Of a stretch of 64,000 nucleotides of DNA, positions 43,941 to 58,952 are shown piece by piece. A model generated the notes under the pieces. The model ran no database searches. It worked only from the letters and a program-made list of their open reading frames with translations, and was not told where the DNA came from. The DNA is taken from contig OX597817.1 in assembly GCA_951406725.2 (NCBI GenBank), forward strand, positions 137,082,001-137,146,000. Reading direction: 5' to 3'. Positions within the stretch are counted from its first letter, which is position 1. Every line of letters starts with the position of its first letter. This stretch comes from Octopus vulgaris (Eukaryota). The translations under genes were made by a program, and so were the position numbers.

Positions 43941-44289
43941 ATCACACACACACACGCCGACATGCGCACACATACACACACATATGAATGTTTACATTAC
44001 AAGAACTGCTTCAATTCTTAATTTAATGTGTGTGTGTGTATTGTTGACGTCATAAACATTTATATACTTTTGAGAGAAAATGAGATAATACCTTTTTGGC
44101 AATGGATCTTGAACGACAAATAATAAGATGTAAATATTGGGTTGGAAGAGCTTTCGTCATTTTCTATCCAGAAGGGATTTTCAAAGTTCAAATGTCGCAA
44201 TGATCTTAGCCTTCCATCCTTTCAGGGTCGATGATATACAATAACAGAAAGGCAGCAATTTCGATCATCCCCACATGGTGAGACACCCC

Positions 44290-45240
44290 TGTCACCTTTC
44301 TTGACATTTCGGTCAACATTCATTACTCCACTCTCACCACCTCCATTCACTACAAGCCCACAGACACACACATACCTCAACTTCTCTTCCTCTCACCCTA
44401 AACACATCAAGCTTTCCACCCCCTATTCCCAATTCCTCCGTCTACGCAGGCTCTGTAGTGACGACCATGACTTTGAGACTCAGTCTCAACTCATGGCTAG
44501 CCACTTCATCCTACGTGGATATCCCCCCATTATCCACACCGCCCTTGCCAGAGCACGTTCCGTAGACCGTGCATCTGCTCTCTCCCCACGAACCAGCCCC
44601 GCCGTCTCCATCCTCCCATTTCTCCCCACCTACCACCCCACCACCCTACCTCTCCAAAGCACCATTTTCCGAGTCTTCCGGCGACTCCGGTTCGACCCTT
44701 CCACATCGAACATCTTCCCTAATCGACCCCTCCCCTCCTTCAAACGAGCCCACGACCTACTAGACTTCTTGGTCCATAGCTTCTTCCCTAACTCAACCTC
44801 CCAACCCGGCTCGTTCCTCTGCTTTCTTACCTCTCCAACACCACCCTCCTCACCGGCACCTATCATCGACCCTTTCACATCACCGACTCCTTCACCTGCA
44901 CTTCTACCAATATCATCTACTGCATCTCCTGCTCTCTCTGCCCTTCTCTATACATCGGGCAAACGAGACGCCGCTTGGCTGACCGGTTCGCGGAACACCT
45001 CCGAGACATCCGACTCAGCGATGACACCCCGGTCTCGCACCATTTCCGCTCTACTCGTCACTCTTTGCAAGACCTGTCCATGTTCGGATTGTTCTTGCAC
45101 AGGGGTCATGCGGACTCCCGTTTGCGCCGTGAACAAGGATTAATCTTCTCTCTTCGCTCCTTTGCACCACATGGGCTCAACTCTTCTCCCGTCACCTCCC
45201 TCCCACCCACGCCTACTTCCTCCCACCAACCTCTCCCCTC
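44290..45240 (+). mobile_element. Neptune-like Penelope fragment (RT thumb + GIY-YIG), frameshifted
   Basis: YLNFSSSHPKHIKLSTPYSQFLRLRRLCSD...RGYP; other frame FTCTSTNIIYCISCSLCPSLYIGQTRRRLADRFAEH...RREQGLIFSLRSFAPHGLN. Confidence 0.88.
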
Positions 45241-45274
45241 TTCACAAAGAAGATCGTCTCTTTGCAACTGCTCA

Positions 45275-47885
45275 GCTACCTGGTCGCAAGCCAAGCTGGG
45301 TATCACTCAGCAAATTATTTTATCAAAAGAATGCGATTAGTTTCCCTCTGACTATCCGTTCCATGACTTTGCTGATGTATGAAGTCAGAGAAAGGCCTAT
45401 AGTTTTTGGTATCTGCTCTGCTTCCCCCTTTATGGATTGGGCGTATTATTCCCTCCTTCAGCTTATTTGGCTGTTTGCCATTTGCAAGAAAGCTCTGGAA
45501 GGGTTTTTCCAGGGCATGCTTACACGATTTGAGGAGGATTCCTGGGAAAACATCAGGACCAGCAGTTGAGTTTGTATCTACTTCATCTATGGCTAGTAGA
45601 ATATCTTCTTTGCTAAAATCGATGAATTCCACCGTAACTGGTTATAGGTGAGGCGGCAAAGAAGTCCACTGGTTCGTTCACTTGTCTGTGTTCCAACGGG
45701 TTGGTAAAGACATTTTTGAACGGTCATTCAGTACCTCACTGTATCTCACTAATCCTAGATGGACTGCTTGTGAGGGAGCCATCCTCTTGGAAGAGGGGTC
45801 CTATCTTGCAGCATACTGATGCTGTTTCTTTGGCGTAATGAAAGAAGGTCTTTGGGTTTGACTGAATGTTTTAATAATCCAGGCTTTTTTGTCTGCTTTC
45901 TCCCTCACATAGGATTGTTGCAGCCTTTTATCAATCTCTATCAGTGTTGTTTTTAGGCGGGACCTTCCGCTAGTTTTGGGATGCTGGTTGAGTCGATTTG
46001 CAACCTTCGTCCGTCGTCTCATGAGGATCTTCCTCCCCACTGGAATCCTGCTCCTATTTGTTTTGGTCTTGTGATCTGGGACATATTTCTGGCATATGGC
46101 TTGCACAACAGACATGAAACATTCTAGTTTCATGTCAATGTCAGGTATGGAGAGACATTTCAGCCAGTCCTCCCTGAGGATATCTTTTTGGATCGATTTC
46201 CAGTCTGCTTTATAGAAGTTCAGACTGGAGAGATTTCGGGTGCTTCCTTTAGGCTGTATGGTTATTTTCGGCCCAAACATTGACAGCTCTATTATGTTGT
46301 CATCCGAGACTAATGTCGGCGTCACTTTCACATCAAGAATGATGTCCATATTGTTCCTGAAGCAGAGATCCAGAATGTTATTCGCTCTAGTCGGTCTGAG
46401 TACAACTTGCTCCATGAATAGGGCATTATTGAGGTTGAGCAGGGACTCCACCTGTGCTTGCTTGCAATAAGTCATTCCTGAGAGTATGAGACCTTCGGGC
46501 CATTTGATGTTGGGGAAGTTGAAATCACCCATAAGAAATATGATCACGTGATGTTCCAGTTGCATGAGGATTTCTTTAATTCTTGTGAGGCAATCTTCAA
46601 ACTTGCCTATGTGCTTTGGAGCATCCGGTGGGCAATATGTATTGCATATGACTATATTATGTTGTCTTATGTATACAATTAGAGTGTCACATATCGAATT
46701 TGAGTATGACAGTAAGACGTAGGGTGTGAGGTCGTGACGGATGTATACATAAACTTCACCATGGCTCATTTCCCTTCTGCCTGTTCGCTGTATGGCATAG
46801 TTTGGTACTTGTACTTCTGCATCCTCTATATCGGGGTTGAGATGAGTTTCCACGGGTGCTATGCATAGGGCTTGATTGCATGCAGCAAGGTCTCTCAGGA
46901 AGAAAGATTTGCTTATGTTATGATGCAACAGGCCCCAATATTTAGTAAAGATATTGGCCTGACGACTGTGCAAACGTTAGGGGAGGCCATCCCGTGTCTG
47001 TTGACTGTGGTGGTCTTGCGCAGCGGTGGGCAAGGTTTCTTGTTTACGCTTGGTGTAGCCAGGTCAGCTGCTGCACAATCTTTTGCGCCATGTACAAAAA
47101 AGACTGTTGCTCAGCTGCTGCGTTGTGCATAACATCTGAAGAGCGCACTTCTTTTGTGAATTTTTTCCTTGGAGATATTTGTTGTCTTTCCCCAGGGAAG
47201 TTTTTCTCCTTAAGGCCCCATTAGTTTTGGCGGGGTGTTGGGTGGGCAAATCGGGTTTTTTTGCCGTCTTCCCCATGCCAACATTTGCCTTGCAGTTAAC
47301 ATATGCAGGTTTTCGAGTGCCTTCAAATTTCTTCTTTCTTGTAGGGTTTTTGATGGTATTGGATCCTCCATGGGGTTTTCTGTTTTTTGTTGGTGGGTTG
47401 GGGTTTCGGTTTTGGATTTTTCACTTTTGCCTTTTCCTTTTTCTTTCTTTCCTTCTTTATGTTTGTGTTCTGTCCTTCCTTTTCTTGTGGTGGGAACTTT
47501 ATTCCTCTGGTTGTCCAATGGGGTGAGGGCTCTGTTCCTTTGTAGAATCACTGGCACAGAGGGGCTTCTAGTTATTGCTTCTTTGGCTCCCCTATCCTTT
47601 TCTCTCTGGTCGTTCAGAGGAGTGGGTGATCCATTCTTTTCAGGAACCACTGGATCAGAGAGACTTCGGGGTTTTGTTACCTTTTCATCTTCTCCATCAT
47701 TATCAGCCTTGCCACAATAGTTTTCGATTATGACATCCAGGGTGTCGATGTGGTCTGATAAGCATATAGGATCTGATGAATTCATTCTTCTTCCGCTCTA
47801 TCTGATCAATGTTTCTGTGAAAGCCATTGTTTTTCGGTGCAGCAGTGATGATGTTGTTTGGCGGATCGCCACTAGCAATCACCCC

Positions 47886-47945: not shown

Positions 47946-47958
<13 letters not shown>

Positions 47959-48491
47959 TAGAAGGTTTGGAGATGTACATGTATTATATATGAGATGAAA
48001 TGAGGTACTCAGAAATCTGGATGGCTTTATATTTACAGATATCTATTAGTATGTTGCATGTTTTTATAAATCTTATATCATATATTAGCGCTTTCGTCCA
48101 CTCAAGTGGAGTTGTCAAATTGAACTTTTGCAGGAATTTTGTCTCTTTTTATAGTATTATTGAGTGTGTAGGGGTGGGGAGAGATATAAGATAGTACAAG
48201 AGGGTGAGGAATGGGGAGAGAGAGTGAGAGAGAGAGATAGAGCGTGTGTGTGTGTGTGTATGTGTGTGTGTATGTGTGTGTGTGTGTATCTGAAAGAGGT
48301 GTTAAAGAAAAAGAGAAGGAAAGGAAGAAGGAGAGAAAGAAGAAAAAATTTGTTGATAGCTTTGCAACTGATCAGTCTTTCAATAGTAAATGATTCTTGG
48401 CTTTTAGAAATGGCAAATTCAGCTGGTTACTCCAAGGGGGGTAAAATGTCACTTTTCAAAAAATTGTCTGGATTTCTTTTTATCATTGTCT

Positions 48492-48524
<33 letters not shown>

Positions 48525-50388
48525 GTGTGTGTGTGTGTGTGTGTGTAAGTGCGCACGTGTGTGTGGGTGTCTGTGTATCTGAAAGAAGTGTCAAATGGAA
48601 AAGGGAATAAAAGGAAGGAGGAGGAGAGAAAGAAGAAAAAATGTGTTTACATTTTTGCAACTGGTCAGTCTTTCAATAGTAAATGATTCTTGGCTTTTAG
48701 AAATGGCACACCGTGCAGGTCAGTCTTTCAATAGTAAATTATTATTGGCTTTTAGAAATGGCAAACGCAGCTGGCCACTTCAAGGGGGGCAAAATGTCAC
48801 TTCTCAAAAAGTTGTCTGGATTTCTTTTTATCATTGTTTTGTGAGTGTGTGTGTGTGTGCGCGCACATGTGTGTGTGCGCGCACATGTGTGTGTGCGCGT
48901 GTGTATGTGGGTGCCTGTGTATCTGTAAGGGTGTCGATGGAGAAAGGAAGAAAGAAGAAAGAGAGGTGGAAGAAATAATTGTGTTGACAATTTATACCAC
49001 TGTTCAGTTCTTTCAAGCCAATGTTTGATTCCTGTGCTGATATGGGTTGGAGAATCTGGAGGAAAGAGTGATTTTTTATTTATGTATATGTACATATGTC
49101 TCGTACTGTGTGTGTGTGTATGTGTGTGTTTGCTTAATACAATTTACTTTACAAAATTGGTCCTTCATCTAGTACAAATTATTATAGAAATATTTTCAGC
49201 CATTCAATTTGGGGGAGAACTTTGTTATGAAGTATTTTTCCATATTTCTACTGAAGGAGGTGTCATTCTTTGGACATTTGTAGAAGGGAAAGATCTCAAA
49301 TTTTCCTTCTCACATGTATCTAGGTGTTTACTCAGTGGAATCTTTCGCAGTTCCTCCTGTCAGACATGTTGTCGGTGAATTCTGGTTCGTTGGCATAAAG
49401 AATTTTCAGTTTCACCTATATAATTCTTCCTGCATGTGGGGCAGGTTATGCAATACATTACGTTCTGCGTCTTGCAGTTCATGTCTGCATTTACTTTGAA
49501 TATCAGACCACTCTTAAATTTCAATTGTTTCCTTCTATATATTTGTAGGTGGGGTTACTGCAGATCCCACATCTACCATCTCCGCACTCTTTTACAAAGA
49601 ATTCGGTTTTAGTTTCTGATGAGAATTTCGCTCTTGTTAGTTGTTTCCTCAGGTTTTTGTCTTGTCGTTTACTGTTTTTTATGCAATATTTGTTTAATAT
49701 GTTTCCCATTTTGAGGCTTTGTAGGACTATTGGTAGGTTTTAATGTATGATTTGAAACATGTTGGTAAATCCAGGGTTGTGTGTTTATGAAAGGGATGAT
49801 GTTTTCTTTGCTTTTCGTTTTTGGAGTTCTGAGTTGTGGGATGTCCAGTTTAATTGCTCTTGAGATTCCATTTTTTATTAGTTTGAGTGGGTATTTTTGT
49901 TCTACTAGGAAGTTTTTAAGTTCATCTAGTCGTATTTGGCGTGCTTGTGAGTCGGTTACTATGCTGCATATGCATCTTGCCATACTATATGGGATGTTTC
50001 TTTTTATGTGGGATGGGTGACAGGAGTAGAAATTTAAATATTGGTGTGTGTCGGTTTTTTTGGTAGTGGATGCCTGTTGTGATGATGGAGTTGTGTATCT
50101 TGATGTTGATGTCTAGGAAGGGAAGTTCGTTGTGGCTGGTATATATCGTGAAGTTGATAGATGGGTGCAGTGTGTCGAGGATGTTGTGGAATGTTCGTAG
50201 ATCTTCTGATCTATTCCAAAAGATGAAGCAGTCATCGAGGTAGCGTTTCCACTTTTTCTTGATGTCTTCTCTGAAGTCGTGTTCGAAGACTTTCCCTATT
50301 TCATCGTATAGTCTGTTCTCAAAGAAACCCATTGCCAGGTTGGCATATGAAGGTGCGAATTTTATACCCATAGCCGTGCCCGTTATCA
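47946..50388 (-). mobile_element. Neptune-like Penelope element, 5'-truncated and frameshifted, with tandemly repeated 3'UTR
   Basis: GTAMGIKFAPSYANLAMG, WKRYLDDCF, LPFLDI, CGDGRCGIC, MNCKTQNVMYCITCPTC..Y.GET; ~300 bp UTR duplication at 48240-48960; 3' end at (TA)n. Confidence 0.88.
48082..48123 (-). ncRNA. Minimal hammerhead-like motif, U3-A8 variant
   Basis: Minus strand TTGACAA-CTCCAC-TTGA-GTGGAC-GAAA-GCGC-TA: stem II TCCAC/GTGGA, palindromic AGCGCT stem III; stem I weak. Confidence 0.55.
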
Positions 50389-51181
50389 GTTTTTAGTTCT
50401 ATGAGATTTGGTGTGGGTGTGGCTGTAAATTTGAGGTCTTTTAGTAGTAGGTTCATTTCATTTTCGTTCAGTTCTCTTTTAGATAGGTTTATTATTTTGG
50501 GGGTCTATGTGTTTTGTGTGTTCATTTGGAATTTTTGGTGTGATGGGTCTGGAGTATGGATTATCAGGGAGAGAATTATATTATCAATAATAATAACGGG
50601 TAAAATTAATTAATTAGTAATTAATAATTTTACCAAGCAGTGTACAGTATGTTAAAAGGACCATATACGGTAAACTTAAACATTACTTTATATAACTAGG
50701 GTTCAGCAAAAAAATAGTAAACTACAGATTCTTCTGTAGGAATTTGTTGCTCTATAAAACACGTGGGTAGACAAGAAAGATTATGAAGTCTCATTCGCAT
50801 GTTTTGAATTCGTTAGTACTGAATATCGAAGATGGTTTGTCTGAAATTACTCGGGTCAGATAGGTATGTTCGATTTTTAGTGCTCTCAAATTTAAAATTA
50901 CTGAAATCTTTGTGCTGATGACATGAATGTTGGAATAGGGATGGATTTCTAGCATCTCTATATCTAACTAACCCAGAAACGCGTCCACAAGTAATCGCAT
51001 GCCGGGTGAACTTTCGTTATTTTTCCCTCTATGCCTACGACAATTGTTTTTGAGTATACATTGTCTGGGAGATTCTTCTTATAGTAGAAGAAATAGCTAA
51101 ATTCTTTGGCTGTTATTTCTAAAAGTTCGGTATGTGGCAAAGCAAATTTTTTTTTGCTGAACCCTAATTATATAAAGTAAT

Positions 51182-51224
<43 letters not shown>

Positions 51225-57037: not shown

Positions 57038-57076
<39 letters not shown>

Positions 57077-57123
57077 ATAGGATTAGCTCGTATACGAGTA
57101 GGTATATATTTGTAAAAAATTAA

Positions 57124-57933
57124 GCTAGAAGGATTTGCACCATAATATCAGACACAAACACCCGACACACACGTCTCCAGGAACTTAGAACCACACTCAC
57201 AAATAGAAACTATCCACAGCCCCTAATAGACAGTGCAATCCAACGGGTACTTAAATTAAGTATAGAAGACCTGAGACAAACAAAACCAAAAAAGAAAGAA
57301 CAATTAAAAACCCTTCCCTACATCTCTACACACAACCCACTCAACAATGAGGCCTTCAACACCATACTACAAAGCACAGCCCTACTAAAGGGAGACCCAA
57401 AGATGAACCGGATCCTCGAAACACACACCATCATTAAAAGTAAACGGCAACCAAAATCCTTGAAAAGGATTTTAACCCAAGCTACACTGCACTCAACATC
57501 AACCACAAAACCAGCAGTTAGAAAATGTGGAAGGCCCAACTGCGGAATCTGTGTCATCTTGAAAGAAGGATCAGAATTTATACTGGAACAAGGCCACCAG
57601 TTCACCATTAGAACAAACTTCACCTGCGCATCAGAAAACTTAATTTACGTCATAACATGCGCAGGCTGCAATAGGCAGTATATAGGCCATACAAAAAATA
57701 GCTTACGTAACAGGATGGCGGTGCATAAATCACAAATTAGAAACCCTGATTACCGCAAAATACCGGTCAGCGGACACATAGATAGATGTGCTGGAAATGT
57801 AAATCCGAAATTTACAACTAACCCGCTCTATAAATTCAGTGACAACGCAACCTTCACACAACGCCAAAATAAAGAACTATATTTCATAAAAAAATTTAGA
57901 CCAAGTTTAAACACCCTGGGCCAGGAATACTAA
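57124..57933 (+). CDS. C-terminal part of the Penelope-like ORF (thumb, Zn linker, GIY-YIG endonuclease)
   Basis: ARRICTIISD...NRNYP...CGRPNCGIC...FTCASENLIYVITCAGCNRQYIGHT...RNRMAVH...KELYFIKKFRPSLN; uninterrupted frame. Confidence 0.88.
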   Translation, partial: ARRICTIISDTNTRHTRLQELRTTLTNRNYPQPLIDSAIQRVLKLSIEDLRQTKPKKKEQLKTLPYISTHNPLNNEAFNTILQSTALLKGDPKMNRILETHTIIKSKRQPKSLKRILTQATLHSTSTTKPAVRKCGRPNCGICVILKEGSEFILEQGHQFTIRTNFTCASENLIYVITCAGCNRQYIGHTKNSLRNRMAVHKSQIRNPDYRKIPVSGHIDRCAGNVNPKFTTNPLYKFSDNATFTQRQNKELYFIKKFRPSLNTLGQEY

Positions 57934-58102
57934 AACAAAAGATAAGTCCTCCGAAAAGGAGAACCAAATTTCACCACGGCCGCTACTTCAAACAGACACT
58001 CACTCTGACGGAAATATGCATTAGTAAAAAAAGGAAAAAAATTCTTTCGTGCAAATCTGACCCTGATACATACGATACAGCTAAGGGTCAGACCCGATTC
58101 TG

Positions 58103-58473
58103 ATTGGTCAACAAGTTGATGACGTCTAGCTCTGCTAGAATGGACAGGATACAAACAGGGGACAGTCATTAGTCAGAATATTGATGACGTCCTTTTCTGC
58201 TTGAATAGTCACCTAACAAGTACAGACAGGGGGCAGATCTAATGTAGCTATAAGTCGTGATTGGGCAGAATCTGAATGACGTCCCGCTATGCTTGACTAA
58301 CGAAGCGACTGGTCAAGACAGGAAACAAACAAGAGGGAGTTATAATGCAGCGATTGGTCAAAATAATGATGACGTCCCGTTCCACTTGATTAAAGCCACC
58401 TAACGAAACGATTGGTCAAAACATTGATGACGTCACGCTACGCTAGATTGACCACCTAACAGGCATTATAAAA
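58103..58473 (+). promoter_or_regulatory. Pol II promoter-like array: 5x [inverted CCAAT - 12 bp - CRE-like TGACGT] plus TATA box
   Basis: ATTGG (one ATTAG) at 58103, 58168, 58260, 58353, 58411, each followed after 12 nt by TGACGT at 58120, 58185, 58277, 58370, 58428; TATAAAA at 58467. Confidence 0.75.
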
Positions 58474-58808
58474 CCGAGCATTTCACAAAAAATCACTAGA
58501 ACCACCCAGCGAACTTCCACCATGGGTCATCACAATTGCTTAAGGTAAAAATGAATTCCTCGCTCTTTCGGAAACATCAATCTTCTGTATTGACCGCTTT
58601 CCACCACTTTGATCTGTTTTTTGTATTGAATACGTATCGCCACCGTGGGCCACTGCATCGAACACTTTGAACATATACTTCAAACTATATATCAACTATA
58701 CATGAACTATATATCAACTATACATGAACTCTAAGATGTCTGACTCCGTTGTGTATTATAAATGAATTTCTTGTGTTTGACGGCATGAGCTGTCTCTTTT
58801 TATATATA

Positions 58809-58856
58809 ACTTTTTTTGATAAGGTTCATTTCAGGAACTGAAACATGTTATAATGT
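58809..58856 (+). ncRNA. Minimal hammerhead motif, U3-A8 variant, partly decayed
   Basis: TTGATAA(58816-22)-GGTTC-ATTTCAG-GAACT-GAAA-CATGTT; homologous to 26675-26722. Confidence 0.6.
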
Positions 58857-58911
58857 ATATATAAAAATTAAAAATTGTATAATACAGCAGCATTTTCGAA
58901 CTTCATTTTTT

Positions 58912-58952
<41 letters not shown>

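Follow-up and report, generated by a model that had tools for sequence, protein, structure and literature searches.

A likely promoter with CRE units in the 3' pseudo-LTR of a truncated Neptune-type Penelope-like element from Octopus vulgaris

Introduction

Does the 3' pseudo-LTR (pLTR) of a Penelope-like retroelement (PLE) in octopus DNA carry a promoter, and do the evenly spaced CCAAT and CRE motifs within it form one composite binding site? These questions are raised by a stretch of 64,000 nt from Octopus vulgaris (assembly GCA_951406725.2, contig OX597817.1, positions 137,082,001 to 137,146,000, forward strand), hereafter the window, in which the first-pass annotation had read a pLTR as a compact expression cassette. 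In D. virilis Penelope, the only PLE promoter dissected in the literature searched, the promoter lies in the 3' pLTR and was shown by test to serve the next tandem copy; this internal promoter lacks a TATA box but has a DPE, and the 5' UTR contains an intron of 75 nt whose donor stands 46 nt after the start (PMC2377424).

The element and its copies

The window contains, at 57072-58915, a 5'-truncated copy of a multicopy Neptune-type PLE with the following parts:

57072-57102 (-): probable family tail of about 31 nt, its family origin inferred from loose ends of contigs
57103-57122 (-; inverted repeat to 57130): inverted copy of the element's 3' terminus, 28 nt, 89% identity
57123-57933 (+): 5'-truncated open reading frame (ORF) with RT thumb, CX4CX2C linker and GIY-YIG endonuclease (EN) with CCHH residues
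57934-58915 (+): 3' pLTR, 982 nt, bounded by the ORF stop and the (TA)n target, with coverage in four of four runs

The ORF matches the GIY-YIG domain at E 6e-7 and has 41 RT/EN protein relatives with identities of up to 57%; the RT itself is seen in these relatives, only its thumb being left in the window. The linker (C135-X4-C140-X2-C143) is invariant in 22 sequences and is a trait common to Neptune and Nematis. The element is flanked by (TA)n runs, the 3' one at 58916-58948, and contig loose ends behind 57119 (run X2) and 57124 (run X19) run on as reverse-complemented 3' ends. The traits of EN+ PLEs found here are thus a C-terminal GIY-YIG domain behind the RT, a hammerhead motif in the pLTR, and an inverted terminus with an inferred tail. 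The anatomy is that of Neptune/Nematis (PMC8557442), and on anatomy and linker the Neptune assignment is a likely one. Naiad/Chlamys elements, which have an N-terminal endonuclease and lack a canonical hammerhead, were rejected, as the EN is C-terminal here and a hammerhead core is present.

At least half of the element's words were present in 20 of the 24 runs listed. Four public runs (X1, X2, X4 and X19) were compared in detail as assembled contigs, which drop rare forms and whose RNA nature is presumed only. Family contigs with zero mismatches over 644-697 aligned nt occur in X1, X2 and X19, and contigs extend upstream of 57123 in all four; judged by sequence, the family is young and multicopy and the window copy truncated.

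Other PLE remains also lie in the window. A related 3' end at 26664-26775 (+) has its own U3-A8 hammerhead with a G-C closing pair and a longer loop II and ends in (TA)n; its terminus resembles one X2 loose end. A second, decayed Neptune-type element lies at about 47958-50500 (-). Its long pLTR is internally duplicated and contains no CRE, a U3-A8 hammerhead is found near 48110, and the RT start is closely preceded by AT-rich sequence that ends in CAG; upstream of this element is a MITE-like insertion of about 560 nt (about 50650-51220) with terminal inverted repeats of about 35 nt. PLE-like RT/EN ORFs at 7861-10397 stand between long inverted repeats (5700-12000), and a third PLE fragment at 44235-45340 (+), with thumb and GIY-YIG similarity, is cut on its 3' side by a LINE.

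The CCAAT/CRE array

Five modules lie in the pLTR:

58102-58126 (+): module 1, GATTGG-N12-TGACGTC
58167-58191 (+): module 2, ATTAG (broken CCAAT)-N12-TGACGTC
58259-58283 (+): module 3, which with G at 58275, as in the runs, gives GATGACGTC like the other four modules
58352-58376 (+): module 4
58410-58435 (+): module 5, with full TGACGTCA

The five modules described by the first-pass annotation are present, as ATT[AG]G-N12-TGACGT at 58103, 58168, 58260, 58353 and 58411, and so is the perfect CRE of the last (TGACGTCA at 58428). The claim of five ATTGG boxes held for four modules and failed for module 2, which reads ATTAG. The array comprises one full CRE and four half-sites, with CCAAT in four of five modules. 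Position 58275 is G in the entire depth of X19, X2 and X4 and in one third of that of X1, which extends GATGACGTC to all five. We take the CCAAT boxes to follow the NF-Y consensus and the GA flanks of the CREs to be of ATF type.

The five CRE half-sites compare with 0.42 expected (none of 2000 dinucleotide shuffles of the pLTR reached five), and ATTGG-12-TGACGT occurs four times versus 0.0005 in shuffles (0/2000), in a test that does not allow for unit duplication; CCAAT alone, at 4 versus 2.33, was matched by 404 of the 2000 shuffles and is not significant. A single unit of 41 nt, copied without gaps, underlies all the modules, which are 68-80% identical to module 1 and start 65, 92, 93 and 58 nt apart. 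Pairwise identity among them is 70/70 (100%) for TGACGTC and 52/60 (87%) for GATTGG, versus 32/60 for the central six spacer bases and 40/80 for the eight bases after the CRE; because the identity of the two sites is far above the roughly 50% of the intervening bases, the letters of both CRE and CCAAT box are likely under selection. The earlier description of the spacers as divergent fits these intervening bases but not the spacer ends, where TCA-N6-TGA is complete in three of five modules and the TCA start is kept in four. A further block, CTWGANT, stands 8 nt past the CRE with 56/70 pairwise identity, at a position as fixed as the CCAAT-CRE gap. Three contig joints (58142-58395, 58227-58299, 58257-58352) and one loose end (58423) fall among the modules, which suggests that the number of array units varies between copies, with mis-placement among similar units possible.

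Core promoter, candidate intron and hammerhead

Downstream of the array are:

58467-58497 (+): TATAAAA and Inr-like TCACT, predicted start near 58495
58522-58550 (+): ATG in Kozak context opening a reading frame of 23 nt (phase 2), then a candidate donor
58816-58849 (+): minimal U3-A8 hammerhead with TTGATAA, stem II GGTTC/GAACT, GAAA and palindromic ACATGT
58829-58835 (+): best internal acceptor-like site, TTTCAG/G (58834/35), a candidate within hammerhead loop II
58895-58915 (+): T-rich terminus running into (TA)n, TTCATTTTTTACAA

The TATAAAA at 58467, CCACCATGG with its Kozak ATG at 58522 (MGHHNCLR), and the donor-like AAG/GTAAAA at 58544/45 were each confirmed in the sequence. Measured from 58495, the last CCAAT is predicted to lie at -82, the CRE at -63 and the TATA box at -28. 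RCCATGG would occur within 100 nt of a TATA box with a chance of about 0.004 under local composition, and the candidate donor, 50 nt past the predicted start, is the top-scoring of the 41 GT sites in the pLTR; the Inr label for TCACT at 58495 and the weights used in scoring donors and acceptors are assumptions of ours. The frame after MGHHNCLR runs into TAA inside GT/AA, so an unspliced RNA would carry an 8-codon uORF.

We suggest, leaning towards this reading rather than holding it firmly, that 58100-58500 is a promoter in the 3' pLTR of a truncated PLE, with five CRE units, four of them with CCAAT, and a TATA/Inr core. bZIP factors and NF-Y would bind the array and activate the start near 58495, and the promoter would drive the RNA of the next copy in tandem; the 12-nt gap would have been fixed mainly by unit duplication, while selection kept the letters of the sites. 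Because only host DNA follows the lone window copy, its promoter is likely without cargo.

The view of the pLTR as a promoter-plus-intron cassette survived in part. Its promoter anatomy was borne out, and the general idea agrees with published PLEs (PMC2377424, PMC8557442), but neither the terminal acceptor nor the use of the donor was. The terminal sequence TTCATTTTTTACAA lacks an AG and the tail lacks a YAG, and we rejected the terminus as an acceptor; it is a T-rich/TA end like that of tandem relatives, and it recurs inverted at 57103-57130 and in the related 3' end at about 26.7 kb. In the contigs of the four runs 58544 takes part in no joint, to 58835 or elsewhere, and is not among the loose ends listed, a listing that leaves out 49 others. 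In two presumed RNA runs, X2 (58446-58901) and X4 (58393-58884), contigs that begin upstream of the predicted start cross the donor unspliced. Splicing to 58834/35 would yield a 9-codon uORF and remove half of the ribozyme. A 5' intron beginning at 58545, its acceptor elsewhere than at the element end, is plausible, and we judge the chances for and against it to be about equal.

The core and stem II of the hammerhead are present at 58816 as proposed, in the minimal U3-A8 variant described in PMC4209133. An Rfam scan at the gathering threshold gave no match; a G-U pair closes stem II, stem I is weak, and the folds do not stand out clearly from those of shuffles (z -1.77 to 0.04). Minimal PLE hammerheads are reported to cleave poorly or to need the element's protein (PMC4209133, PMC11167929).

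Related elements

Seventy-eight metagenome loci were chosen on protein alone; 43 had a match reaching the EN end, and after three with less than 150 nt were dropped, 40 entered the 3'-region test. The eight closest proteins come without DNA context and so stand outside the 3'-region counts; one genome-contig locus (L079) entered only the tree and the ORF1/donor scan. A quick tree places the window's group as sister to 17 rows (SH-aLRT 80). TGACGT/ACGTCA precedes the hammerhead in 10 of the 11 sister-clade loci with 3' DNA versus 4 of the clade's 24 remaining loci; the Fisher test on these counts ignores relatedness, and the pooled CRE excess (45 versus 2.6 over 23 loci) overstates independence, L001/L023 and L013/L025 being duplicate families. 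A loose hammerhead pattern misplaced the 3'-region boundary in L005, L006 and L010.

In the sister-clade 3' regions TGACGT/ACGTCA is the top hexamer, many of the sites being non-palindromic half-sites, and CCAAT occurs once in 1889 nt. The CRE-like sites of relatives cluster just upstream of the hammerhead, and in nine sister-clade loci the last CRE stands 25-52 nt before it, which leaves no room for TATA box, exon and intron in these pLTRs. Tandem relatives are ordered as CRE cluster, hammerhead, T-rich/TA end, stem-loop, and ORF1 with an ATG 136-152 nt after the hammerhead, and they have no counterpart of the window's extra stretch of about 380 nt with TATA, ATG and donor. Since the sister-clade pLTRs lack this room and ORF1 has its own ATG, the window layout is not conserved. 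The CRE multimer, by comparison of these loci, was likely inherited from an ancestor common with the sister clade; the CCAAT box, among relatives with DNA, is seen only in the window's family. As a post hoc lead, 10 of the 12 spacer bases in L038 agree with those of module 4.

Further features of the relatives bear on PLE organization more broadly. A T6 slippery site precedes the RT in 17 of 28 loci with 5' context, where the upstream ORF1 overlaps the RT frame, and a -1 frameshift at T6 between the two is likely on this pattern. Where complete, the upstream ORF is about 400 aa long (L002, L007, L009, L011, L013, L016, L027, L034, L043, L045, L047, L054, L060); that of L009 has no Pfam match. 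Directly behind the pLTR end, and some 60 nt ahead of the ORF1 ATG, L001, L002, L009, L010 and L013 have a conserved stem with CTTGTAC-like and GTACAAG-like arms, which may correspond to the internal RT-initiation stem-loop of PMC11167929. In the more distant L067, L068 and L073 the RT frame starts directly after TTTCAG, which suggests an intron before the RT. In L010 (1226-1510) one short pLTR contains 11 or more CRE-like sites, between which a presumably YY1-like GACGCCATTTT is repeated. A repeat flanking L023 (about 2500-2560) has TGACGT, CCAAT, ACGTCA, ATTGG and TGACGTCA within 60 nt, which shows that other repeats of invertebrates also combine CRE with CCAAT, at other spacings. Viral contigs contained no relative, and the composite patterns gave one chance match there, inside a phage gene, and otherwise none.

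Alternative explanations

The equal spacing had been taken to imply a stereospecific NF-Y + CREB/ATF site, an implication that our data leave unsupported: the modules are diverged duplicates of one unit, so that equal spacing is largely inherited, a second block is equally fixed, and ATTGG with TGACGT at any spacing of 0-30 is absent from all 40 relatives' 3' regions (at least 150 nt after the ORF), a set in which the closest families are without DNA. Over whole loci, six ATTGG/TGACGT matches occur among the 78, at spacings 4, 8, 11, 11, 11 and 14 and none at 12. Even so, NF-Y and an ATF/CREB dimer might bind cooperatively in a fixed geometry, the 12-nt gap being required in a signal-responsive multimerised enhancer; this is compatible with the promoter reading, and we hold it to be rather unlikely but deserving of weight. 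In its favour, five modules stay ungapped although their intervening bases have diverged by about 50%, and no spacer indel is among those listed in the four runs, versus two between modules. Unit duplication explains the equal spacing as well. Zero indels in the free central spacer bases would nonetheless have a chance of 0.19-0.58 at assumed indel:substitution ratios of 0.05-0.15, the CCAAT box of module 2 is lost, and four of five CREs are half-sites. Adjacent CREs in L033, L034 and L038 have the same 17-nt offset as CCAAT to CRE in the window, a likeness noticed post hoc. Human CCAAT boxes tend to lie around -80, with bZIP or E-box sites on their 5' side at 10-12 bp (PMC3730095, PMC7793273, PMC4889920); the CREs here stand on the same side of CCAAT and at a similar distance (PMC3730095, PMC7793273), the distance convention being unmatched, yet human ATF2/3/4 peaks mostly avoid NF-Y-bound sites (PMC7793273). 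Improbable, in our estimate, is that the TGACGT repeats are not bZIP sites at all but another signal of the element, such as DPE-like RGACGTGY, palindromes for RNA pairing, or endonuclease recognition. D. virilis Penelope does use RGACGTGY as a downstream promoter element (PMC2377424), and the clusters adjoin the hammerhead in relatives; but GACGT is preceded by T, not R, the sites are found in either orientation, and the half-site persists where the palindrome often does not; those in the window, moreover, are flanked by ATF-like GA and located upstream of the TATA box.

The promoter might also work with no mini-exon or intron. On this account, suggested by how the sister families are laid out, the CRE array would act on the TA-rich end of the pLTR, some 65 nt ahead of ORF1, and the TATA, ATG and GT of 58467-58550 would be incidental or yield just a uORF. 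A TATA-like stretch does stand 61-70 nt before the ORF1 ATG in four of five tandem relatives, whose ORF1 has its own start codon, and the contigs are unspliced. MGHH-like starts occur in none of 66 homologous proteins, a weak test as these are mostly unspliced gene calls, and in none of 25 proteins found by an ORF1 profile search. A diverged subfamily, moreover, can be aligned as far as 58475, just past the TATA box, but not over 58476-58547. Set against this are the textbook TATA-Inr-CCAAT distances, the complete Kozak sequence and the top donor among 41 GT sites, all within 80 nt, as well as the retention of introns by PLEs, in which spliced and unspliced RNA coexist (PMC2377424). On balance we find this account unlikely, if only a little more so than a required 12-nt geometry.

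The host gene

The element had been described as sense-oriented inside a transporter gene. One coding exon of such a gene was found 37 kb upstream of it:

19873-20113 (+): SLC6/SNF transporter gene, first coding exon, with donor G/GTGAGT (phase 1)

The orientation agrees, both being on the same strand, but no downstream exon was found: none of 300 of 450 candidate ORFs scanned (211/223 on +, 89/227 on -) is a further SNF exon, in a scan that left out ORFs below 36 aa and those inside TE intervals. A location inside the SLC6 gene is plausible on this evidence. That the window copy supplies a start exon for SLC6 exons further downstream, giving a shortened transporter, is in our view highly improbable: D. 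virilis pLTRs have been proposed to drive downstream host exons (PMC2377424) and the strands match, but no exon to be driven was seen in the ORFs scanned, and the mini-exon ends in phase 2 while the SLC6 intron is in phase 1, which means a frameshift if the next exon is canonical. No effect on the host transporter is indicated.

Known systems and significance

Promoter, intron, hammerhead, tail, and TATA/Inr in pLTRs are already known (PMC2377424, PMC8557442, PMC4209133, PMC3846280), and what we describe is a variation in the regulation of an established element class and does not amount to a new system. D. virilis Penelope shares the 3' pLTR promoter, a donor about 46-50 nt past the start and an intron near the hammerhead (PMC2377424, PMC4209133), whereas the window's promoter elements are of the upstream type, place an ATG before the donor, and are known from sequence only. 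Neptune and Nematis EN+ PLEs share the C-terminal GIY-YIG, the CX2-5CxxC linker, the pLTR hammerhead, 5' truncation, an inverted terminal copy, a tail of 30-40 nt and a microsatellite target, and the relatives have ORF1 and the T6 slippery site before the RT as well; the window's element differs in its long pLTR (982 nt) with a five-unit CCAAT/CRE array and an upstream TATA box, such an array being absent from the sections of PMC8557442 used here. Adineta vaga Pen2a has a putative TATA and TCACT Inr in its pLTR, an inverted pLTR and a 31-bp tail, but differs in its 218-bp pLTR and in belonging to the Penelope/Poseidon group, and the sections used report no upstream enhancer array (PMC3846280). 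Tandem imperfect CRE units upstream of a core promoter are found in the 21-bp TREs of HTLV-1, bound by CREB (PMC3651266), and tandem CCAAT units in ERV-9/LTR12 (PMC3730095); both belong to unrelated element classes, and the analogy is functional only. Among the papers searched, none deals with CRE or CCAAT arrays in PLE pLTRs, though Repbase may annotate this family, and a 2026 retrozyme preprint, in the part searched, mentions neither promoter, CRE nor CCAAT.

A broader reading, which we offer as a long shot, is that the Neptune-type lineage kept ATF/CREB multimers across families of only about 43-57% protein identity, tying retrotransposition to host cAMP or stress signalling, and that in the window's family an ancestral CRE-CRE pair 17 nt apart became an NF-Y-CRE composite, joined to a U3-like enhancer, a TATA box, and an intron spliced into hammerhead loop II that would remove the ribozyme from the mRNA. 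If true, many young copies would spread promoters that respond to signals across the genome of the host. A promoter of the upstream type whose CRE multimers are common to related families would name host factors that switch PLEs on, and shared multimers would allow a direct test of PLE activity against cAMP/stress signalling.
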